DNA of 21,396 nt from a virus (taxonomy: Duplodnaviria > Heunggongvirae > Uroviricota > Caudoviricetes): IMG/VR virus record IMGVR_UViG_2737471827_000008, positions 1-21,396 of that record; one strand, 5' to 3'. Below the pieces are notes generated by a model that saw only the letters and a list, made by a program, of their open reading frames with translations, was not told the origin of the DNA and ran no database searches. A program made the translations under genes and the position numbers. This document shows positions 7,776 to 21,396 of this stretch, piece by piece; positions within the stretch are counted from its first letter, which is position 1, and each line of letters starts with the position of its first letter.

Positions 7776-9542
7776 ATGAACACCACACTGACACCCGCAG
7801 ATCTCGATCCCCGTCGGCAGGCCATGCTGCTGTACTTTCAGGGATACCGCGTAGCCCGCATTGCTGAAATGCTGGGCGAGAAAGTTGCAACCGTTCACAG
7901 CTGGAAAAAACGCGACAAGTGGGGTGATTATGGGCCGCTGGATCAGATGCAGCTCACCACCGCCGCACGCTACTGCCAGCTCATCATGAAGGAGCACAAA
8001 GAAGGGAAAGATTTCAAAGAGATTGACCTGCTGGCGCGCCAGTCGGAACGCCACGCGCGGATCGGCAAGTTTAACAATGGCGGCAACGAAGCCGACTTAA
8101 ACCCTAACGTCGCCAACCGCAACAAAAGCCCGCGCCGTCAGCCGGAAAAGAACGTTTTCACCGATGAACAGATTGAGAAGCTGGAAGAAATTTTCCATTC
8201 CTCCATGTTCAACTACCAGCGCCACTGGTGGGAAGCCGGAAAAACCAACCGCATCCGCAACCTGCTGAAGTCACGCCAGATCGGCGCGACCTTTTACTTT
8301 GCCCGTGAAGCCCTGATTGACGCCCTGCTTACCGGACGTAACCAGATTTTCCTTTCCGCCAGTAAGGCACAGGCCCACGTCTTTAAACAGTACATCATCG
8401 ACTTCGCCAAAGAAGTGGAGGTGGAGCTGAAAGGCGATCCGATGGTGCTTCCCAACGGGGCCACGCTTTACTTCCTCGGCACCAATGCCCGCACTGCCCA
8501 GAGTTATCACGGCAACCTGTATCTGGATGAATATTTCTGGATACCAAAATTCCAGGAGCTGCGCAAAGTGGCTTCCGGTATGGCTATTCACAAAAAATGG
8601 CGACAAACCTATTTTTCCACGCCATCCAGCCTGACACACAGTGCTTATCCGTTCTGGTCCGGTGCGCTGTTCAACCGTGGGCGCAACAAAGCCGATAAGG
8701 TGGACATCGACCTGTCCCACAGCAATCTGGCCCCCGGCCTGCTGTGCGCAGACGGGCAATACCGCCAGATAGTCACCGTGGAAGATGCGGTGCGCGGCGG
8801 CTGTAACCTGTTCGACCTTGACCAGTTGCGCATGGAGTACAGCCCGGACGAATACCAGAACCTGCTGATGTGCGAGTTCGTGGACGATCTCGCGTCCGTG
8901 TTCCCGCTCAGCGAGCTGCAGGCGTGCATGGTGGACAGCTGGGAAGTCTGGACCGACTTTCATGCACTGGCTCTGCGCCCCTTTGGCTGGCGCGAAGTGT
9001 GGATCGGTTATGACCCGGCAAAAGGTACGCAAAACGGCGACAGCGCCGGATGCGTAGTGGTGGCACCGCCAGCCGTGCCGGGCGGTAAGTTCCGCATTCT
9101 TGAGCGTCACCAGTGGCGCGGGATGGACTTCCGCGCCCAGGCTGACGCCATCAAAAAACTGACCGAACAGTACAACGTGACATACATCGGCATCGACTCA
9201 ACTGGCGTCGGCCACGGGGTTTACGAGAACGTGAAAGCATTCTTTCCTGCCGTCCGGGAGTTTGTCTACAACCCCAACGTTAAAAACGCCCTGGTACTCA
9301 AGGCCTACGACATTATCAGTCACCGCCGCCTAGAATTTGACGCCGGACACACCGACATTGCGCAGTCATTCATGGCAATCCGTCGCGCCACCACCGCCAG
9401 CGGCAACCGCCCGACCTATGAAGCCAGCCGCAGCGAAGAAGCCAGCCATGCCGATCTGGCCTGGGCAACAATGCACGCACTCTTTAACGAACCGCTGCAG
9501 GGCGAGTCCGCCAATACCAGCAATATTGTGGAGATTTTTTGA
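7776..9542 (+). CDS. P: Terminase ATPase (large) subunit (P2 gpP-like)
   Basis: 588 aa; N-terminus MNTTLTPADLDPRRQA... resembles gpP as recalled; divergent from O, followed by Q. Confidence 0.9.
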   Translation: MNTTLTPADLDPRRQAMLLYFQGYRVARIAEMLGEKVATVHSWKKRDKWGDYGPLDQMQLTTAARYCQLIMKEHKEGKDFKEIDLLARQSERHARIGKFNNGGNEADLNPNVANRNKSPRRQPEKNVFTDEQIEKLEEIFHSSMFNYQRHWWEAGKTNRIRNLLKSRQIGATFYFAREALIDALLTGRNQIFLSASKAQAHVFKQYIIDFAKEVEVELKGDPMVLPNGATLYFLGTNARTAQSYHGNLYLDEYFWIPKFQELRKVASGMAIHKKWRQTYFSTPSSLTHSAYPFWSGALFNRGRNKADKVDIDLSHSNLAPGLLCADGQYRQIVTVEDAVRGGCNLFDLDQLRMEYSPDEYQNLLMCEFVDDLASVFPLSELQACMVDSWEVWTDFHALALRPFGWREVWIGYDPAKGTQNGDSAGCVVVAPPAVPGGKFRILERHQWRGMDFRAQADAIKKLTEQYNVTYIGIDSTGVGHGVYENVKAFFPAVREFVYNPNVKNALVLKAYDIISHRRLEFDAGHTDIAQSFMAIRRATTASGNRPTYEASRSEEASHADLAWATMHALFNEPLQGESANTSNIVEIF

Positions 9543-10579
9543 TGGGAAAGAGTAAGAAGAACCGCGCTGCGGCGACGAAACAGAGCCAGCTTAAAAGCCA
9601 GACTACAGCCGAAGCATTCAGCTTCGGTGATCCCATTCCAGTACTTGACCGCCGCGAACTGCTGGACTATGTGGAATGCGTACAGACAGATCGCTGGTAT
9701 GAGCCTCCTGTCAGCTTTGACGGACTGGCGCGCACCTTCCGCGCTGCTGTGCATCACAGTTCCCCGATTGCAGTAAAGTGCAACATTCTGACCAGTACCT
9801 ACATCCCTCACCCGCTGCTCAGCCAGCAGGCTTTTTCACGTTTTGTGCAGGACTATCTGGTATTTGGTAACGCCTACCTGGAGAAACGCACGAACCGCTT
9901 CGGTGAAGTTATCGCCCTTGAACCGGCCCTGGCAAAATACACCCGACGCGGGTTAGACCTGGATACCTACTGGTTTGTGCAATACGGTATGACAACACAG
10001 CCGTATCAGTTCACGAAAGGCAGCATCTTTCATCTGATGGAACCGGACATTAACCAGGAGATCTACGGCCTGCCCGGCTATCTTTCTGCCATTCCGTCAG
10101 CCCTGCTCAATGAGTCCGCCACGCTGTTCCGCCGTAAGTATTACATCAACGGCAGCCATGCAGGCTTCATCATGTACATGACCGACGCCGCGCAGAATCA
10201 GGAGGATGTGAACAATCTCCGCAACGCGATGAAAAGCGCCAAAGGTCCAGGCAACTTCCGCAACCTGTTTATGTACTCGCCTAACGGCAAAAAGGACGGC
10301 CTTCAGATCATCCCTTTGTCAGAAGTTGCGGCGAAGGATGAGTTTCTGAATATCAAAAATGTCAGCCGCGATGACATGATGGCAGCACATCGCGTTCCGC
10401 CACAGATGATGGGGATTATGCCAAATAATGTTGGGGGTTTTGGGGATGTGGAGAAGGCTAGTCTTGTATTTGTTCGCAATGAATTGATGCCACTACAGAA
10501 GCGACTACATGAACTAAACGAATGGGTGGGTGCAGAAGTAATACGTTTTGATGACTATGTTTTAGGTGTTCAGGAATAA
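9542..10579 (+). CDS. Q: Portal protein (P2 gpQ-like)
   Basis: About 345 aa; ATG at 9542 overlaps the P stop (TGATG). Confidence 0.85.
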   Translation: MGKSKKNRAAATKQSQLKSQTTAEAFSFGDPIPVLDRRELLDYVECVQTDRWYEPPVSFDGLARTFRAAVHHSSPIAVKCNILTSTYIPHPLLSQQAFSRFVQDYLVFGNAYLEKRTNRFGEVIALEPALAKYTRRGLDLDTYWFVQYGMTTQPYQFTKGSIFHLMEPDINQEIYGLPGYLSAIPSALLNESATLFRRKYYINGSHAGFIMYMTDAAQNQEDVNNLRNAMKSAKGPGNFRNLFMYSPNGKKDGLQIIPLSEVAAKDEFLNIKNVSRDDMMAAHRVPPQMMGIMPNNVGGFGDVEKASLVFVRNELMPLQKRLHELNEWVGAEVIRFDDYVLGVQE

Positions 10580-10582
10580 AAG

Positions 10583-10610
10583 AAAAGGCGCTAATCTCAG
10601 CGCCTTTTAT
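10583..10610. terminator. Bidirectional intrinsic terminator between convergent Q and the STAS-like gene
   Basis: aaaaGGCGCTaatctcAGCGCCtttt: 6-bp GC-rich stem flanked by A-run and T-run. Confidence 0.6.
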
Positions 10611-10625
10611 CTAACTAACCATATA

Positions 10626-10964
10626 TTAACAAACGGCGTATAAACCATCAAATCCAACGGAATGAACCTTTTTTGATGCTACTTCATTACTACGGCGTTG
10701 GATCACTTTTGCAATACTTTTTAAAATTGAAGGGGGTGCATTGCGAACCTTAACTTGACTCAAAACTTTGGTTACACCGAATTTCACTACCAAAACACCA
10801 AAGATTTCATCAGAGTATGATTCTGAAATTGAATAAACACCGCTCAGATCTAAATCTACGGTATACCCTTCTTTAATGAACCCTTCAATCTTGTGTCGTT
10901 GGGGGATAGCCTGATTGCGCGAAGCCAGGTCACCCTCGGGTAACTTGTATGCGATTTTGTTCAT
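10626..10964 (-). CDS. STAS-like (anti-sigma-antagonist fold, DUF4325-like) small protein; second gene of the accessory operon
   Basis: 112 aa containing VDLDLSGVYSISESYS, resembling the DLSGV/Ser-rich loop of RsbV/SpoIIAA-type STAS domains. ATG overlaps the stop of the upstream gene (TAATG); AGGAGG RBS embedded in the upstream gene's 3' end. Confidence 0.5.
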   Translation of the reverse strand: MNKIAYKLPEGDLASRNQAIPQRHKIEGFIKEGYTVDLDLSGVYSISESYSDEIFGVLVVKFGVTKVLSQVKVRNAPPSILKSIAKVIQRRSNEVASKKVHSVGFDGLYAVC

Positions 10965-11938
10965 TACTCTCCTCCTAACGCCCGCATTATTTCCATAAGC
11001 TGAGGGTCATTTTCTTCGCTATCTTTATCGACTGCCAGTTCATGAATCTTAAAACGGCAAGAAATTGCTACACCCGGCCATTCAGTACGTAATTCAGTAT
11101 AGCTCACTTCATCACCTATTGCTTCTAAGCATACATTTCCTGAAGCCAGTTGCAATTCCCCATTATATGTTTTTATCAATTTCATCAAGTGATACAACCC
11201 AAGCCCTTGATGATTATTATCTTTTTCTTTGACCGAAACCCCGTGGCCAAACACACTACCCCCAATAAAGTCCTGGGGAAGCTGCTGTGCCCAATCATCC
11301 TGCAAATCAGCATGCTTAGATGAATGTCCCTCTTGAATACACCATGCGATCGCATCCTGGTGAGTCTCAATTCCGGGTATACCAGCTCGCCGCAATTCTC
11401 GGAGAAATCCTAACCCACAGTCCGCCAAAGAAAATTCTAAATAGTGCTCTTTTTTTTGAGTGTGGGGTACAGCCGAACGTTGTGCAAAAGAAAAACCCGT
11501 TGATTTTCCATGCGACCAAACGTTATCGTGAAGCTCACCTATAACATGGGTTAGATCTGTAAGTCCCTTGGGACAATCTCTCGGATCACGATCAGGGAAT
11601 GTTAACTGCCTTACACAACTGTTAATACTACCAGTGGCAACGTCAACAGCTTCAACATTGGTTAATGCTGTAACCAAACTGTAATTTCTTCCAACATTTA
11701 CACGTTCCTGTTGATACTGATCCTCTCCCCATAAAGCACCATGTAAATTGATAGCTCGCATATAGCCAGGGCATGACAAAACACAGTTATCTTCGGTAAT
11801 TTTGTGATGATTCACGTAAGCTGCTAAGACAGTGATAAAACCAGGATGCCAATGATTGTTTGGCAATTGCAATTCATTAGTTTCCTTTTGATGAAACGCA
11901 GCGGTATGCACAATAGCGTCTTTTAATCCTAACCCCAT
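10964..11938 (-). CDS. GHKL-family (HATPase_c, RsbW/histidine-kinase-like) ATPase/kinase with an N-terminal domain of unknown function, about 120 aa
   Basis: 324 aa. Bergerat-fold motifs readable in translation: N-box IGELHDNVWSHG, G1 box LADCGLGF, G2 box HQGLGLYHL. AT-rich relative to flanking late genes. Confidence 0.6.
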   Translation of the reverse strand: MGLGLKDAIVHTAAFHQKETNELQLPNNHWHPGFITVLAAYVNHHKITEDNCVLSCPGYMRAINLHGALWGEDQYQQERVNVGRNYSLVTALTNVEAVDVATGSINSCVRQLTFPDRDPRDCPKGLTDLTHVIGELHDNVWSHGKSTGFSFAQRSAVPHTQKKEHYLEFSLADCGLGFLRELRRAGIPGIETHQDAIAWCIQEGHSSKHADLQDDWAQQLPQDFIGGSVFGHGVSVKEKDNNHQGLGLYHLMKLIKTYNGELQLASGNVCLEAIGDEVSYTELRTEWPGVAISCRFKIHELAVDKDSEENDPQLMEIMRALGGE

Positions 11939-11967
11939 GAACCGAACCTTTTTTATGCATTTTTCTT

Positions 11968-11996
11968 ATCATATAACTTAGGACTGATCAGCGCAA
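11968..11996 (-). promoter_or_regulatory. Candidate sigma70 promoter for the GHKL/STAS operon
   Basis: Minus strand TTGCGC-17 bp-TATGAT (forward 11991-11996 and 11968-11973), about 30 bp upstream of the 11938 ATG; spacer contains a GATC. Confidence 0.3.
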
Positions 11997-12056
11997 AGCT
12001 CCCGACACTATTGAATCATACTAAATTAAGGCCTATACCACACAGCACAGCGCGCG

Positions 12057-12075
12057 CTCGTATCCCCGCCACGCC
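12057..12075 (-). other. cos-like sequence (candidate cohesive-end site)
   Basis: Minus strand reads GGCGTGGCGGGGATACGAG. The first 13 nt match the 19-nt cohesive end of phage 186 as I recall it (GGCGTGGCGGGGAAAGCAT); flanked by a CATG-rich repeat region. Confidence 0.35.
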
Positions 12076-12548
12076 TGCCCGCTTTATGTAGTAGTTTTCA
12101 TGCACCTGCATGACATGAGCAAAAGCTCGCCAGTTCTGGCATGTCTTAGCCAAACCGATCCTCAAACGATCATGCGAACTCATGCAGCATAGACATGCAT
12201 GACATGAAAATCGGTCAAACCTTGAAACCAGTCATAAATATGAGCCAGCTTAATACACACTAAATAGCTGCGTCTAATACTGCTACACCTGCCGTTTACT
12301 GACATGTGGCATGTCGCGTAAGGACAACATACTGTAGGCCAGATACAGCAGGATCAGGCGAAGAAAACGGCCCCACGCCTTACCCAGCAAGGGCCAAGGG
12401 CTAACCGAAAGTGGAGCATTATTCCGCGCAGTTATTTAGTGTCAGCTCTTTTGAGCTAAAATCAAGTTTCAACATGAGGGTCTGTGCAGGCTTTCTCATC
12501 CCGCTAATTTATACAGCACACCTATATGGCTATGAGTTTGTCATGCCC

Positions 12549-12580
12549 GCTAATCCTGTTAGGATTAGCCTTGTTTTTTT
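12549..12580 (+). terminator. Perfect 9-bp inverted repeat with T-tract (intrinsic-terminator-like hairpin), 18 bp upstream of the lipoprotein ATG
   Basis: GCTAATCCT-gtt-AGGATTAGC followed by cttgttttttt. Confidence 0.35.
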
Positions 12581-12597
12581 ACGATTGGGATAGGGAT

Positions 12598-13404
12598 ATG
12601 AAGAAATTAACTGGCGTAATTGCTTTTGCTCTGCTGCTTACTGCTTGTGACAAACCGAAGATCGATGCATCAAGCGATCAGTCGATGAAAGAGTCCATTC
12701 AAAAAGTAAGAGAGTCCTTACCTGCAGATAAAAAAGCTCAGTTTGATGATGCAGTTAAAGTCGTTGCCTTTAGCCAAATCAACATGAGAGAGCTAATGCA
12801 GGCTGGAACGTCTTCTGGGGACGTCTACGAAACAAAAATTAAGTCAGCGCTGGAAGGTAAAACTGGTGATGAGGTTATAAATTACGCACAAACTATTCGC
12901 CTTGAGCGTGAGAAGAGAGAGAAAGAACAGGCTCTGCAAGAAATAAAAGAACTGGAAGCCAAACAAACCTCTGCAACACAGGCTGCGGAAAAAATGAAAG
13001 CCTTCAAGGTCGAACGTTCCCGTTTTTATTTCCAGAAAGAGGATTACGGCAATGATCAGCCAATTCTGGATATTAGCGTTGAAAACGGAACAGACAAAGC
13101 GGTTGCCAGAGTATTCTTCAAAGGAGTTATTGCCAGCCCAGGAAGAAGCGTCCCTTGGTTCTCTGACGTCTTCAACTATAAAATTTCTGGAGGTCTGGAA
13201 CCAGGTGAGAAAGCCAACTGGAAATTAGCCCCTAATAGATACTCTGATTGGGGAAAACTTAAAGTTCCGGCTGATGCTATATTTACCGTCACAGTCATTG
13301 GCCTTGAAGACGCAGATGGGAAATCGATCTATGGTGACGCCGAGTTTTCAGAACGCGATGCTGACAGACTGAATCAACTTAGAGATAAGTACCTTTCTAA
13401 ATAA
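12598..13404 (+). CDS. Lipoprotein of unknown function (accessory gene)
   Basis: Start placed at ATG 12598: MKKLTGVIAFALLLTA|CD is a classical lipoprotein signal peptide with Asp at +2 (inner-membrane retention rule). About 268 aa mature, charged, coiled-coil-like middle region. The ORF-track extension from 12526 runs through the terminator-like hairpin. Confidence 0.6.
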   Translation: MKKLTGVIAFALLLTACDKPKIDASSDQSMKESIQKVRESLPADKKAQFDDAVKVVAFSQINMRELMQAGTSSGDVYETKIKSALEGKTGDEVINYAQTIRLEREKREKEQALQEIKELEAKQTSATQAAEKMKAFKVERSRFYFQKEDYGNDQPILDISVENGTDKAVARVFFKGVIASPGRSVPWFSDVFNYKISGGLEPGEKANWKLAPNRYSDWGKLKVPADAIFTVTVIGLEDADGKSIYGDAEFSERDADRLNQLRDKYLSK

Positions 13405-13428
13405 TCAAAATTAAAGCTACTTCAGCAT

Positions 13429-13455
13429 AGTCCCTGAGAATATATATCAGGGACT
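13429..13455. repeat. 9-bp perfect inverted repeat between the two lipoprotein genes
   Basis: AGTCCCTGA-gaatatata-TCAGGGACT; no T-tract follows. Confidence 0.3.
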
Positions 13456-13512
13456 ACCAAATCACGGCAGATACCCCTTAGTTAAATAATGCTAAACGCT
13501 TAGAAAGAGACC

Positions 13513-13812
13513 ATGAAACGTATAACTTTCTCCTTTACGTTAGTAGCAATCATCATAGCCTTAGCTGGATGTGCTTTGCCAGATAAAGACGGCGACTTCG
13601 GAGCTTATGTTCATGCCTGTCAGCAATATGCATACGGAAAATCCTATGCCTTTGAGAATAGAGACTTCGCGTATAAGGTCTGTAAGGACGCGGCGAAACT
13701 GTGGAGTGAAGAAGTTCCTGGCTATATCATCAGGCAAATTCAACTACATCCTGAAATACCCAGCGAAGAAATTAAATATGCAGCCATGGCCGGCTCTTTG
13801 GGTAACAACTAA
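13513..13812 (+). CDS. Small lipoprotein of unknown function (accessory gene)
   Basis: 99 aa; signal peptide with lipobox LAG|C (MKRITFSFTLVAIIIALAGCA...); three further Cys in the mature part. Confidence 0.55.
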   Translation: MKRITFSFTLVAIIIALAGCALPDKDGDFGAYVHACQQYAYGKSYAFENRDFAYKVCKDAAKLWSEEVPGYIIRQIQLHPEIPSEEIKYAAMAGSLGNN

Positions 13813-13825
13813 ATCAACTTATGAG

Positions 13826-13849
13826 AAAGGGGCTTAATGCCCCTTTTCG
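13826..13849. terminator. Intrinsic terminator between convergent lipoprotein gene and the LexA-controlled small gene
   Basis: aaAGGGGCttaatGCCCCTtttc. Confidence 0.55.
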
Positions 13850-13879
13850 GTTCCCTTATCAAGTCCTAACGAAACAAGC

Positions 13880-14068
13880 TCAACTGATTACATCCATCGA
13901 CCTACTGTATTCATGGCTTCGAATTTTCGCCATCAACTCATCAGTCAATTCAGAAACCCACTGCAGAGCTAGCCCCTTCTCTTCATCACTACACTCACTA
14001 GCCGCTACAAGCTTAAGAAAAAAATCAATGCGCTGGAGCTTCAAAGACTCCAAAAAATAGTCCTGCAT
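13880..14068 (-). CDS. Small protein (62 aa) behind a LexA box; candidate SOS-inducible antirepressor (Tum-like position)
   Basis: ATG at 14068 (MQDYFLESLKLQ...) preceded by AGGAGG with 4-nt spacer. Immediately downstream of gene A, same strand, where phage 186 carries tum. The longer ORF-track version (start 14170) would include the promoter. Confidence 0.5.
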   Translation of the reverse strand: MQDYFLESLKLQRIDFFLKLVAASECSDEEKGLALQWVSELTDELMAKIRSHEYSRSMDVIS

Positions 14069-14109
14069 CTTTCCTCCTATAACACCATACGCAATACTGT
14101 ACATATAAC

Positions 14110-14152
14110 CACTGTTTATATTTACAGTATATAATAATCTTACTGATGTAAA
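14110..14152 (-). promoter_or_regulatory. LexA (SOS) box overlapping a candidate promoter
   Basis: caCTGTttatatttACAGta at 14110-14129 fits CTGT-N8-ACAG with an AT-rich spacer. On the minus strand a TTTACA (-35-like, 14147-14152) and TATACT (-10-like, 14126-14131) overlap the box. Confidence 0.55.
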
Positions 14153-14221
14153 ACGTTTTTTTACGTTCATCAGCCTGATATGCCTGGTATTATTAAGAGC
14201 ACGAATTGTTAACCCGCGTGA

Positions 14222-16636
14222 TTAATACAGGTTCCGCCACTTATCATCTTCCTGCAAACGCTGGTTCCGATAGAAGATACGCAGGCCTGCTCCTGACGGA
14301 ATACTGCCACCGCAAAGGAGCAAATCGACCTCTTTCTCGCTGCCATCAAATCCTCTGGACTTCAGTTCATAGACGAGCTGCTGACGCTGATACTCTGTAA
14401 TTCGCTGTTTGTAGTCTTTACGCCGTTTCGGTTTAACCAGGCGCAATCTTGCTGCCAGTTCCCGGCGCTCTTTTTTGCTCATACTGTGCAGGTAATCGTG
14501 CAATTCCTTGTCATCCATGCAGGTAATGTCCGTTCTGGTATCCCCATCTGCTGATTCATCTTTCTCATGTTGGTTCAAATTTTCAGCAAGGGGACAGTTA
14601 TTGCCACGAGTCCAAGGGGCGCAAGCGCCCTGGTCGGCTGCCGCCTCCTGAACATCAACGGCCTTACGAACCATTTTCCACTTCACGGCATGAGTGCAGA
14701 TCTTGCCCTCTGCAATAGGTGACCAGATGCCATAAATACGAATGCCGTGATCGCCATAGGCGGTCGGCTCTTCGTTGATTTCATAAGCGGTTCTGATGAG
14801 GTGATATTTGCGGGGAACCAGTACGCCGCCCTGCTTCATGATGTAGGTGGCAAAACAACCAGCATCAGCAGCAGCCAGGATGGCATCAAGGCGCGGGTTA
14901 TCCAGTACCGGCGCACCTGCTTTTTTGTCCCCCTGTTGCCTTGCCGCCTGACCAGCCAGCAATCGCAGTTCACGGTAAGCCTGACGCCCCGGAATGCCAA
15001 AGAAGCGGAATTGCTGAACACGATGCAGAGACGCCCAGGCATTAACGTATTCAGCATTATCACGCAGGGATTTCCCCGTTTCCTTGCTGATCTCGCCAGC
15101 CAGACCACGCCCGTCAATGTTCTTACTGATGTATTTCGCGATGTAGCTTGTTGGCGTACCTTTGCGCGGGTTAATCAACTCAGACTTAAAGCGCGGCCCA
15201 GTGTTATTGCCCAGTTCCTCGCGGTCTTCACGGATGGCAAACTTACGCAGTAATGCAGTGATGGCGCGGCGGTCTTTTTTGCGCATAAAACACAACAGGT
15301 GCCAGTGAACTGTACCGTCATGATGCGGCTCAGCCACCCGCACGCCATACCACCGCAATCCGGCTTTGTGCATCGCCTTACGAAATGCAGCAAACATGCC
15401 GACCAGATAATCACTGCTTTGTCTTACCGTCGCATTTGTCCAAGTTGGGTTGGGCCTGCCATTATTTAGCGTGGAATGGAAACGTGACGGACAGGTGATG
15501 GTGTAGAAAACGGCGCAGTCACCGCGCATTTCCGCGATAAGCTCCAGGCCTTTAACACAGGCCATCATCTCATTGCGGCGATGCGCAGGGTTGCTGCTGC
15601 TGGCGTTTACCACATCCTCCATGTCCAGCGTGTCGCCGTCTTCGTTCACCAGTTCATGAGAACGAAAAAACTCCAGCGACTTACGGCGCTGCTCACGTTT
15701 ATGCATCACGGCTTCATAGCTGACATAAGGAGATGCTTTTTTGCTAACCAGGCAGACAGCGCGCAACTGCTCTTCCCGCCATTCGCAACGCATCTTCCAT
15801 AATTTCCGATACCACCAGTCGGCGCACAACATACGCGCCAGCGAACCCGGAATGAGTTCATAGGGCACGGGTTTACGGCGGTTTCTTTTCCGGCGGAGTT
15901 GCTCAAACGCAGGAGGAATGACATCCAGACGCAGGGTTTCCGCCGCCACCCTTTCCCATGTCTTGCGGATTTCTTCTGGCTTAACGTCATCGGTGGCATA
16001 CAAATCGCCACAAGCTGCATCAAGACACATGCTCATATGCGCAGCAACAAGGGTGGACAGGCGTTTCACCTGATCCTGACTCATTTCAGGCAGGATCAGC
16101 AGGCCGTCCAGCCCTTCATGGCTTGCCATAAAGCGAAAAGAAGTGGATAGCTGACTCTCGCGTACATGCTCTAGTCGTTCCAGACATTGCTTAATCGTCT
16201 CACGTAAATAGCGGGAATAAGCCTTTGGCCTGCCCAGGCTGCTGAAATATTCAATACGTTGCATCAGCGGCTTGCTGATATGGGAAGGCTGGGCGTTGAC
16301 GTCAGTCAGAATGACCATGTCTGGATTAAAACGCTGCTGCTCATGCGCCATCTTTGCCCGGCTAATGAGCTTATCCTGCTCCATTTCGCGTTGGACAGGA
16401 TCACGGGATTCATTAAAGAAATAACGCTCCCAGACCTGATCACTCAGTGCCTCGCGGCGCAGTTGTTCCTGCTCGTTATCGGTAGCGTACAGAGTGATCA
16501 GGTTTGAAAGCGCAGAAACCGGCGCAACTTCCGCCGGGTCCAGATAAGGGTTAATGGCCTTTTTCGGGCTGTTCCATGAGAATGCTGCGGCGACCTCGTT
16601 AAAGCCGCTGCAGTTGTTCATATCAGCATGGCTCAT
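14222..16636 (-). CDS. A: Replication initiation endonuclease (P2 gpA-like rolling-circle initiator)
   Basis: 804 aa; HUH-like motif ([10 protein letters not shown]) and tyrosine-containing YIAKYISK region; stop/start overlap with upstream dam. Confidence 0.85.
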
Positions 16637-19416: not shown

Positions 19417-19986
19417 ATGAATTTGGAGAAAGGCGGACGAGGCGCTATAGAGCGCATGGTAGAAGCTTATGGATTCAAGACTCGACAGGCGTTGTGCGAT
19501 CATTTAGGAATCTCTAAAAGTACACTCGCCACACGCTACATGCGTGACTCATTCCCAGCAGAATGGGTAATCCAGTGCGCCCTTGAAACAGGCACCTCGC
19601 TTAATTGGCTCACAACCGGGCATGGTTCAAAGCAAACTTCAGGTAATACAAATACTATGGAAGTTGCTAAATATGTATTATCTGATGGGGCCTTGTGTGA
19701 AGACGGTTTTTATATTTTCGATAGAGAATTTCTACCGTCGGCATTCAAGAATCTTTTTGTAATCACAGATAATAATTCTGAATTTATTTGTGATAAGGAA
19801 TTTGATGATATACGTGATGGTAAATGGGTAATAAGTATTGATGGCGAAATAACGATCCGTGACATTACTCGTTTACCCGGTGGAAGAATCTTCGTCGAGG
19901 GTGGAAACAGAGCCTTCGAGTGCAAGATAGAAGATGTTGAAATAATTGGGAAAATTATAAGTTTAACAATTAAGTACGTTAGGTAA
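19417..19986 (+). CDS. cI: CI immunity repressor (phage 186 CI-like)
   Basis: About 189 aa from ATG 19417 (GGAG RBS); N-terminal HTH-like segment (TRQALCDHLGISKSTLATRYM) and C-terminal oligomerisation-type domain; upstream of int on the same strand. Confidence 0.75.
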   Translation: MNLEKGGRGAIERMVEAYGFKTRQALCDHLGISKSTLATRYMRDSFPAEWVIQCALETGTSLNWLTTGHGSKQTSGNTNTMEVAKYVLSDGALCEDGFYIFDREFLPSAFKNLFVITDNNSEFICDKEFDDIRDGKWVISIDGEITIRDITRLPGGRIFVEGGNRAFECKIEDVEIIGKIISLTIKYVR

Positions 19987-20001: not shown

Positions 20002-20193
20002 ATGCTTGGTAAGGTATTTTTTGTGGTTTTATCATGCTCTTTGTTATTAAACCCACTAACTACCTATGCTAAAAATTATCCTTGTTCTGGGAAAAAGGGA
20101 GGTGTCTCTCACTGTACCTCCGATGGAAAGTTCGTTTGCAATGATGGAACTATTAGTAAATCAAAAAAAATCTGTACTAAAAACTCGCGATAA
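20002..20193 (+). CDS. Small secreted Cys-rich protein (63 aa), unknown function
   Basis: Strong RBS GGGAGG 5 nt upstream; signal peptide [23 protein letters not shown]|K; four Cys in the roughly 40-aa mature part. Confidence 0.5.
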
Positions 20194-20379
20194 ATTTTGC
20201 TTTTATATCTGCGCCTAATATAACAATGAGCCGCAGGCTAACCGCAAAAGTCACATACTCACATAGCAAAAAATAGCTAACTTCATTATGGCTTCAGTGA
20301 GATGTATGGTCGCAGGATTTCATACATTGACACTGGTTATACATACAGTAAAAATGCTCTCTACTGGAGGGCATTTTTT

Positions 20380-21396
20380 ATGGCAGTACGAAAACTCACC
20401 ACAGGAAAATGGCTTTGCGAATGTTACCCCGCCGGACGTAGTGGACGTCGTGTGCGTAAACAATTCGCCACCAAAGGCGAAGCTCTGGCTTTTGAGCGTC
20501 ACACGATGGAAGAAACCGAAGCAAAGCCCTGGCTGGGCGAATCAGTGGATCGTCGGACATTGAAAGACGTGATTGAGCTATGGTTCAAACTACATGGTAA
20601 ATCTCTGACAGCTGGGCAGCATGTCTATGACAAACTGCTGTTGATGGTTGACGCTCTGGGCAATCCCCTTGCAACTGATCTAACCTCTAAAATGTTTGCC
20701 CACTATCGAGATAAACGCCTGACAGGTGAGATCTACTTCAGCGAGAAATGGAAGAAAGGAGCAAGCCCGGTCACCATTAACCTGGAGCAAAGCTATCTAA
20801 GTAGTGTTTTTAGCGAACTATCCCGCCTGGGCGAATGGTCGTATCCGAACCCACTGGAGAACATGCGAAAATTCACCATCGCAGAAAAAGAGATGGCATG
20901 GCTTACCCATGAGCAGATTGTTGAACTGCTGGCTGATTGCAAACGTCAGGACCCAATTCTGGCACTGGTAGTCAAGATATGCCTAAGCACAGGCGCACGC
21001 TGGCGAGAAGCAATAAATCTTACCCGCTCGCAAGTGACCAAATACCGAATTACCTTTGTAAGAACGAAGGGGAAGAAAAACAGAAGCATCCCTATCAGTA
21101 AAGAGCTTTACGAAGAGATCATGGCGCTTGATGGGTTCAATTTCTTTACAGACTGCTATTTTCAATTTTTATCCGTGATGGAAAAAACGTCTATCGTGCT
21201 CCCTCGCGGTCAACTGACACACGTTCTGCGCCATACGTTTGCGGCGCACTTCATGATGTCGGGTGGAAATATCCTTGCTTTGCAAAAAATCCTCGGACAT
21301 CACGATATAAAAATGACTATGCGCTATGCCCATTTAGCACCCGATCATCTTGAGACGGCTCTGAGATTCAACCCCCTCGCAACGCTAGAAGTGTGA
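20380..21396 (+). CDS. int: Tyrosine recombinase / phage integrase (P2-family)
   Basis: Start placed at ATG 20380 (MAVRKLTTGKW...) with GGAGG upstream; C-terminal catalytic region with ARWREA, HVLRHTFA and MRYAHL motifs (R...HxxR...Y); stop is the last codon of the window. Confidence 0.9.
   Translation: MAVRKLTTGKWLCECYPAGRSGRRVRKQFATKGEALAFERHTMEETEAKPWLGESVDRRTLKDVIELWFKLHGKSLTAGQHVYDKLLLMVDALGNPLATDLTSKMFAHYRDKRLTGEIYFSEKWKKGASPVTINLEQSYLSSVFSELSRLGEWSYPNPLENMRKFTIAEKEMAWLTHEQIVELLADCKRQDPILALVVKICLSTGARWREAINLTRSQVTKYRITFVRTKGKKNRSIPISKELYEEIMALDGFNFFTDCYFQFLSVMEKTSIVLPRGQLTHVLRHTFAAHFMMSGGNILALQKILGHHDIKMTMRYAHLAPDHLETALRFNPLATLEV

Follow-up and report, generated by a model that had tools for sequence, protein, structure and literature searches.

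Gene order and the tum locus

The window (the whole stretch of DNA analysed, 21,396 nucleotides) forms the right arm of a Fels-2-like (Peduoviridae) E. coli prophage and carries the early operon on the minus strand, in the order apl-like, cII, fil, DUF5347, DUF2732, traR/dksA-like, dam, A and then tum. The genes and the hairpin that bear on tum were located as follows.

13826 to 13846, no strand assigned: GC-rich hairpin, probable bidirectional terminator, with an 8-bp stem AAAGGGGC/GCCCCTTT, between the convergent tum and 99-aa genes
13880 to 14068, minus strand: tum (tumA-type), 62 aa plus stop; product 61/62 identical to E. coli HS ECHS_RS04495 (DuoHS Tum) and 59/62 identical to Fels-2 STM2728; phrog_698
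14222 to 16636, minus strand: replication endonuclease gene A; records with a match give replication endonuclease or P2 gpA-like; tum adjoins its 3′ end
19417 to 19986, plus strand: cI, 186-type immunity repressor (PF07022 and PF16452), presumed target of Tum
From 20380 past the window end, plus strand: int, the integrase gene

Several complete E. coli chromosomes matched the window at 100% over 701 bases around the tum locus, and MS 115-1 matched it at 99.6%. From gene A through the tum stop codon, the window was ~93–94% identical to Fels-2 and numerous P2-like phages of Klebsiella, and homology to Fels-2 and to the E. coli HS prophage DuoHS stopped exactly at that stop codon. The tum gene lies directly 3′ of gene A on the same strand, as does the TumA form of the gene, and the order A then tum was common to 186, PSP3, Fels-2, DuoHS and those distant relatives whose contigs reach upstream.

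A run of A residues stands between gene A and the tum promoter (14156–14170, minus strand), with 6 A in Fels-2, 7 in the window and 8 in DuoHS. The short inverted repeat AACGT/ACGTT on both sides of this run possibly forms a weak hairpin or a terminator ending the A transcript.

An earlier, sequence-only reading of this DNA had described an AGGAGG, an ATG and a 62-codon frame directly after gene A, and all three were present. The ORF listing also held a 96-aa frame opening at ATG 14170, for which the LexA-like sequence described below would be coding DNA; this long form is used in some records and in many metagenomic calls, and some Klebsiella phage records name it 'levan regulatory domain protein'. 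The probability that it is the real product was judged close to negligible. The length of the A-run is polymorphic by 1 nt, which puts ATG 14170 out of frame in Fels-2; in DuoHS the upstream ATG is also out of frame and is, besides, mutated to ATA. A strong AGGAGG precedes the internal ATG, the RefSeq annotation is of 62 aa, and the distant relatives are all ~60–70 aa, with a LexA box 5′ of their start. With its frame broken in relatives (Fels-2, DuoHS), the 96-aa 'levan regulatory' ORF was rejected.

Promoter and LexA operators

The elements 5′ of tum, all on the minus strand, were assigned as listed.

14147 to 14152, minus strand: predicted −35 hexamer of the tum promoter, TTTACA, 17 nt from the −10 hexamer
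14124 to 14129, minus strand: −10 hexamer TACTGT, also serving as left arm of LexA box 1, assigned by analogy with 186 p95
14110 to 14129, minus strand: LexA box 1, TACTGTAAATATAAACAGTG, three mismatches to consensus, ~23 bits
14095 to 14114, minus strand: LexA box 2, CAGTGGTTATATGTACAGTA, ~15 bits, with 5 nt in common with box 1
14073 to 14078, minus strand: Shine-Dalgarno sequence AGGAGG, 4 nt 5′ of ATG 14068, kept in relatives

The predicted promoter lies 70 nt 3′ of gene A, and its layout, TTTACA-17-TACTGT, matches that of 186 p95 as annotated (TTCACA-18-TACTGT), whose −10 hexamer makes up the opening 6 nt of the LexA site. At the level of sequence the promoter is overlapped by the LexA operator, as in the TumA form. 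A consensus promoter/terminator scan of 13700–14300 called no site; the tum promoter went uncalled because its −10 agrees with consensus at only three of six positions, and the thresholds of the scan leave out both a TACTGT −10 and a short T-tract.

The near-consensus LexA box of the sequence-only reading was confirmed at 14110–14129. Box 1 departs from the 20-nt consensus TACTGTATATATATACAGTA at three positions and is the sole such match in 21.4 kb, and none of 100 dinucleotide-preserving shuffles yielded a match with three or fewer mismatches. The bare CTGT-N8-ACAG core is weak evidence, because it was present in 25 of the 100 shuffles. Scoring by weight matrix, which had been proposed as a check, agreed: on a LexA matrix built from 29 E. 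coli sites, the scores of which are approximate, box 1 reached ~23 bits with a heterology-type index of 4.6. The training sites spanned 12.4–27.2 bits on this matrix, and the best scores in 200 shuffled windows averaged 10.6 ± 2.5 bits with a maximum of 18.6. Box 2, at ~15 bits on the same matrix, falls inside the range of real sites.

The tum ATG (14068) is 41 nt beyond box 1, and box 2 is at −46 from the tum start; the single boxes of 186, PSP3 and eight distant relatives are at −23 to −47. The −35 hexamer TTTACA and box 1 were unchanged in DuoHS, Fels-2 and a Klebsiella phage. All three keep the pair of boxes, with two nucleotides different in box 2 of DuoHS and an identical double operator in Fels-2; 186 and PSP3, by contrast, have one box each. 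The two boxes are offset by 15 bp and have 5 bp in common, the arrangement of colicin-type double operators. In colicin genes, such operators take up two LexA dimers and repress so tightly that basal expression is undetectable (PMC2994835), and by analogy the double operator at tum would give colicin-like tight repression. No occurrence of the operator sequence strings was found in the papers in which they were sought, and the colicin-like double LexA site at tum is regarded as a minor new point.

The Tum family is small, with 87 representatives at 50% identity, ~55–75 aa long, among 1.84 billion proteins. Its upstream regions were compared at 12 loci, namely those of eight metagenomic relatives (29–53% identity) and those of DuoHS, Fels-2, 186 and PSP3. 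A LexA box was present at 12 of the 12, scoring 18.7–28.6 bits and lying 23–61 nt 5′ of the start, with the next-best site nearby at ≤8.8 bits. The eight distant loci had one box each (18.7–26.8 bits, 23–47 nt before the start; next-best site nearby ≤8.3 bits), and the flanks were otherwise unrelated. Each of the eight distant tum genes stands just 3′ of a same-strand gene, which is Phage_GPA in L012, L014 and L016, the loci with a Pfam match on record; on short contigs the gene upstream of tum was cut off and had no match on record. A box at every locus amid unrelated flanks constitutes a phylogenetic footprint for control of the Tum family by LexA.

The top-scoring LexA site of the window lies upstream of int.

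20331 to 20350, plus strand: LexA box CACTGGTTATACATACAGTA, 23.6 bits, in the spacer of the int promoter

Here a perfect −35 hexamer TTGACA (20327–20332) is followed by GGAGGG and by the integrase ATG at 20380. The box was identical in DuoHS and MS 115-1, and was kept in the Klebsiella phage 4LV2017 and the E. coli phage vB_EcoM-813R9 (20.9 and 23.4 bits, respectively), in both of which the genes upstream of int are unrelated and the flanks have diverged. No such site was found in 186 or Fels-2, where int comes directly after cI (top score ≤7 bits). This placement suggests that the int promoter is SOS-inducible. A published description of a LexA-controlled int promoter was sought and none was found; the box is regarded as a further minor new point.

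Between cI and int, a 63-aa ORF was seen at 20002–20193 (plus strand); it has a signal-peptide-like N-terminus and several cysteines, and fell into no Pfam family. DuoHS and MS 115-1 have it as well, but it is missing from Fels-2 and 186, in which cI is directly adjoined by int.

Tum protein, CI repressor and the DinI-like partner

The 62-aa ORF matched phrog_698 with an E value of 1e-37, and residues 1–65 of 186 Tum matched the same family (E 5.5e-6), at positions 7–44 of both. The ORF also matched phrog_8554 (E 1.6e-8) and phrog_1993 (E 0.002), two families matched in turn by 186 Tum and PSP3 TumA. The comparison with Tum at profile level that had been suggested was positive: when a family profile of 33 diverse members was aligned with 186 Tum in hhalign, the probability was 95.3% and the E value 2.3e-8, over residues 5–46 of both. 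The homology of the protein is thus to the N-terminal part of 186 Tum, outside the DinI-like domain, as it is for the TumA form. Pairwise BLASTP failed to align the window protein with either 186 Tum or PSP3 TumA, so that the homology to 186 Tum rests on profiles.

Searches of Pfam, NCBIfam and PADLOC with the 62-aa protein returned nothing meaningful, with no Pfam match at E ≤ 10, and a PDB sequence search found nothing. Its PHROG families are unannotated (phrog_698 is listed as 'unknown function'), and the names given to the tum protein in source records are all 'hypothetical' or 'levan regulatory protein'. The AF2 model is a two-helix hairpin, with helices at residues 2–23 and 28–61 (pLDDT 88). 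Foldseek with this model returned generic helical hairpins only, none at E ≤ 0.001, and no RNA family was found by Rfam over the whole window.

The window CI carries PF07022 and PF16452, the combination of the 186 CI family, and was 98% identical to DuoHS CI, 42% to Fels-2 CI and 32% to 186 CI. Peptidase_S24 was detected in it only below threshold (16.7 bits against a cut-off of 23.3). On these domains the repressor is a CI of the 186 type and would not be cleaved in response to RecA, in keeping with a TumA-type unit.

ECHS_RS04495 of E. coli HS is a 62-aa gene directly after the replication endonuclease, and is named tum, in the prophage DuoHS, in the Phollow paper (PMC12055606). In DuoHS, mitomycin C-induced lysis and virion foci were abolished by an in-frame tum deletion or by lexA(Ind−) (PMC12055606). 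Phage transfer of SopEPhi was blocked by deletion of tum (PMC8710666), and 186 Tum inhibits and sequesters CI (PMC7708051). The Salmonella strain used for an SOS-regulon study lacks Fels-2, and no such gene is in its list (PMC8072944).

An SOS-induced gene whose target is not CI was considered as well: the product would be a modulator of RecA or LexA in the manner of DinI, or else a host-directed or exclusion factor. The lack of Pfam, NCBIfam and PADLOC matches and the membership in unannotated PHROG families only would fit such a role. It was nevertheless judged very unlikely, since deletion of the 61/62-identical gene abolishes induction of a prophage whose CI is 98% identical, the half of 186 Tum with which the protein shares homology is not the DinI-like one, and the predicted helical hairpin is without DinI similarity at the sequence or family level.

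The sequence-only reading had remarked that the protein is much shorter than 186 Tum, and had offered a DinI-like SOS modulator as another identity. The length is accounted for by the build of the genes. In 186 Tum the antirepressor half is fused to a DinI-like half, and tum is split in two in Fels-2 and PSP3, the upstream gene being the antirepressor, according to Lemire et al. 2011 (PMC3121763). The DinI-like identity was rejected: the protein has no DinI Pfam match, and its similarity to 186 Tum falls in the other half from the DinI similarity, which is confined to residues 72–142 (PDB 1ghh), a segment missing from the window protein.

No DinI-like ORF was found in the whole window. Both tum and a DinI-like gene were present in 1083 of the 1125 complete E. 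coli genomes with the locus (~96%), and the window's own junction occurred in only 20 complete E. coli genomes. Natural lysogens with this junction include E. coli MS 115-1 and HH194M. The place of tumB is taken by cargo DNA, of which the hairpin at 13846–13826, beginning 34 nt 3′ of the tum stop, is part. The tum ORF had been read as ending at a terminator, and this held to the extent that an 8-bp GC-rich hairpin is there; it did not hold for a terminator proper to tum, as the hairpin was uncalled by the scan and its T-tract is poor on the tum strand (UUUCUCAU). On the opposite, plus strand the T-tract is better (TTTTCGGTT), so the hairpin is at best a shared bidirectional terminator.

The cargo occupies 10626–13812, within the P2 variable region and flanked by the portal gene and tum. 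On the minus strand a pair of genes encodes a 324-aa protein without a family and a 112-aa STAS-like DUF4325 protein, with PADLOC matches that were all weak (DrmA region, E 5e-6; PDC-M65A, 0.007). The plus strand encodes a 292-aa lipoprotein of the DUF6694 type and has a lipoprotein-like ORF of 99 aa. The combination is unusual, because at most 68% of 9500–14100 is covered by any complete E. coli genome. Inside the 324-aa ORF there is a weaker LexA-like site, AACTGTTAATACTACCAGTG (11617–11636, 15.4 bits), which is probably due to chance because its score is within the shuffle range.

Between the tum genes of the window and DuoHS there are 15 nt differences, affecting 11 codons synonymously and one non-synonymously (N55S), a pattern that shows the protein to be under purifying selection still. 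All 15 lie in codons 33–62 (13880–13972), with the 5′ half, the RBS and, apart from the two positions in box 2, most of the promoter and operator identical. This distribution suggests a mosaic or recombination joint inside tum, beside the point where the DinI-like gene was replaced.

TumA in the window might then be a remnant, in which the loss of tumB and recombination in the 3′ half have disabled or strongly altered SOS induction. The end of homology at the stop codon, the rarity of the junction (20 genomes, against 1083 of 1125 with both genes) and the crowding of the differences from DuoHS into codons 33–62 would all be expected of a remnant. The ratio of 11 synonymous changes to one non-synonymous change argues for persisting selection, however, and promoter, operator and RBS are intact and match those of the relatives. 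In DuoHS, moreover, the phenotype came from deletion of tumA alone, and four of the eight distant relatives (L010, L012, L016 and L017) likewise have no DinI gene after tum, so the short form alone seems to be a viable arrangement. A disabled or strongly altered unit was considered highly improbable, and the tumB-less variant is regarded as a minor new point.

Interpretation and comparison with known systems

The region is interpreted as the LexA-controlled tum antirepressor unit of a Fels-2-like (186/P2-family) E. coli prophage, acting on CI, with a probability of about 0.9. The sequence-only reading, which had seen a Tum-like unit mirroring p95-tum of 186, is borne out in this by the near-identity to DuoHS tum, the homology at profile level and the p95-like promoter layout. 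The reading was correct and the finding is not new, because genetic work in E. coli HS had already established that induction needs a protein only one residue different.

In the lysogen, LexA dimers on the two overlapping SOS boxes would cover the −10 hexamer and the start region and keep tum silent. On DNA damage, activated RecA would bring about self-cleavage of LexA and the tum promoter would fire. The 62-residue, two-helix Tum would bind the 186-type CI and keep it off its operators, as 186 Tum does. The lytic promoter would then be derepressed and the minus-strand early operon (apl, cII, the replication genes and A) switched on, leading to lytic growth. LexA repression and damage-induced transcription of tum are expected from the sequence taken together with the lexA(Ind−) result in DuoHS. 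That tum is required for SOS induction, in dependence on LexA cleavage, is carried over by analogy from the 61/62-identical DuoHS gene and from SopEPhi. Binding of Tum to CI in this prophage would follow from the homology and from the DuoHS deletion. Direct CI binding is said to have been demonstrated biochemically only for the 146-aa 186 Tum, by Shearwin in 1998.

The comparison of repressors bears on the contact surface. Between window and Fels-2 CI, identity was 67% for the N-terminal domain as against 27% for the C-terminal one (42% overall), and the Tum proteins of the same two prophages are near-identical (59/62). With CI conserved mainly N-terminally, the N-terminal domain of CI would be the surface that Tum contacts. 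A wider proposal, put forward tentatively and held to be somewhat doubtful, is that the short Tum may be a broad-spectrum antirepressor acting on the N-terminal, DNA-binding domain of CI, and that tum and int may form a two-promoter SOS module. In that case an SOS-induced Fels-2-like prophage would also trigger induction of heteroimmune relatives sharing its host cell. The module would combine a colicin-type double operator on tum, with no DinI partner, and a separate LexA-repressed int promoter.

The element is a known one, the tum unit of Fels-2-type prophages, which is unnamed in databases. Its mechanism has been worked out in 186, and genetics has established it in the near-identical E. 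coli HS prophage and in SopEPhi. The practical value is in annotation: the database entries examined have 'hypothetical' or, wrongly, 'levan regulatory protein', although tum is present in 1103 of 5426 complete E. coli genomes (about a fifth). The tum unit sets the exit from lysogeny, and would therefore set the timing of the spread of cargo genes in the gut. The double operator, the variants lacking a DinI partner and the SOS box at int may bear on the induction threshold and on the tuning of excision in P2-family prophages.

DuoHS has the same Tum but for one residue (61/62), the same position after A, a double LexA operator, a 98% identical CI and the same integration site next to rcdA. It differs in the DinI-like ECHS_RS04500 that stands 10 nt 3′ of tum, where the window has the hairpin and unrelated convergent cargo, and in N55S and 14 further nt differences, all in the 3′ half. 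Fels-2 STM2728 is likewise a short, free-standing antirepressor half, LexA-controlled and 3′ of A; next after it comes a DinI-family gene whose record notes similarity to PSP3 TumB, and the Fels-2 CI is just 42% identical.

The tumA gene of PSP3, which carries the annotation 'similar to 5′ end of 186 tum; UV induction of prophage', is of the same kind. In PSP3, however, the DinI-like tumB follows, TumA is only remotely similar (hhalign E 0.003), and there is a single LexA box. With 186 the window has in common the genome position, a −10 hexamer serving as the left arm of the box, homology over residues 5–46 and a CI of one family. The 186 Tum differs in its length of 146 aa, with a fused C-terminal DinI-like domain and several in-frame starts, and the 186 unit in its single LexA box and in orf97, which comes after tum in the operon.

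For the operator, the counterpart is the double SOS operator of the colicin E1 gene, cea, on plasmid ColE1, which was confirmed in NC_001371.1, ~60 nt 5′ of METAVAYYKDG. Two 20-bp boxes are again offset by 15 bp, with 31/35 identity over the 35-nt pair, and box 2 of cea is identical to that of the window at 20 of 20 positions and at two flanking bases. It belongs to a plasmid toxin gene and not to a phage antirepressor, and the rest of the promoter is unrelated. A 22-nt run identical between the tum operator and the ColE1 operator (L009, 701–735) spans the weakly constrained spacer, and the int LexA box is identical to DuoHS tum box 2 at 19 of 20 positions. The likeness of the tum, ColE1 and int operators could reflect common origin, gene conversion between mobile elements or convergence.

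GfoA, GftA and FsoA of the Gifsy and Fels-1 prophages are also small, LexA-controlled proteins, whose binding inactivates a non-cleavable prophage repressor and whose operon includes a dinI homologue (PMC3121763). They differ from the window Tum in belonging to lambdoid prophages, in acting on another repressor family and in a reverse gene order.
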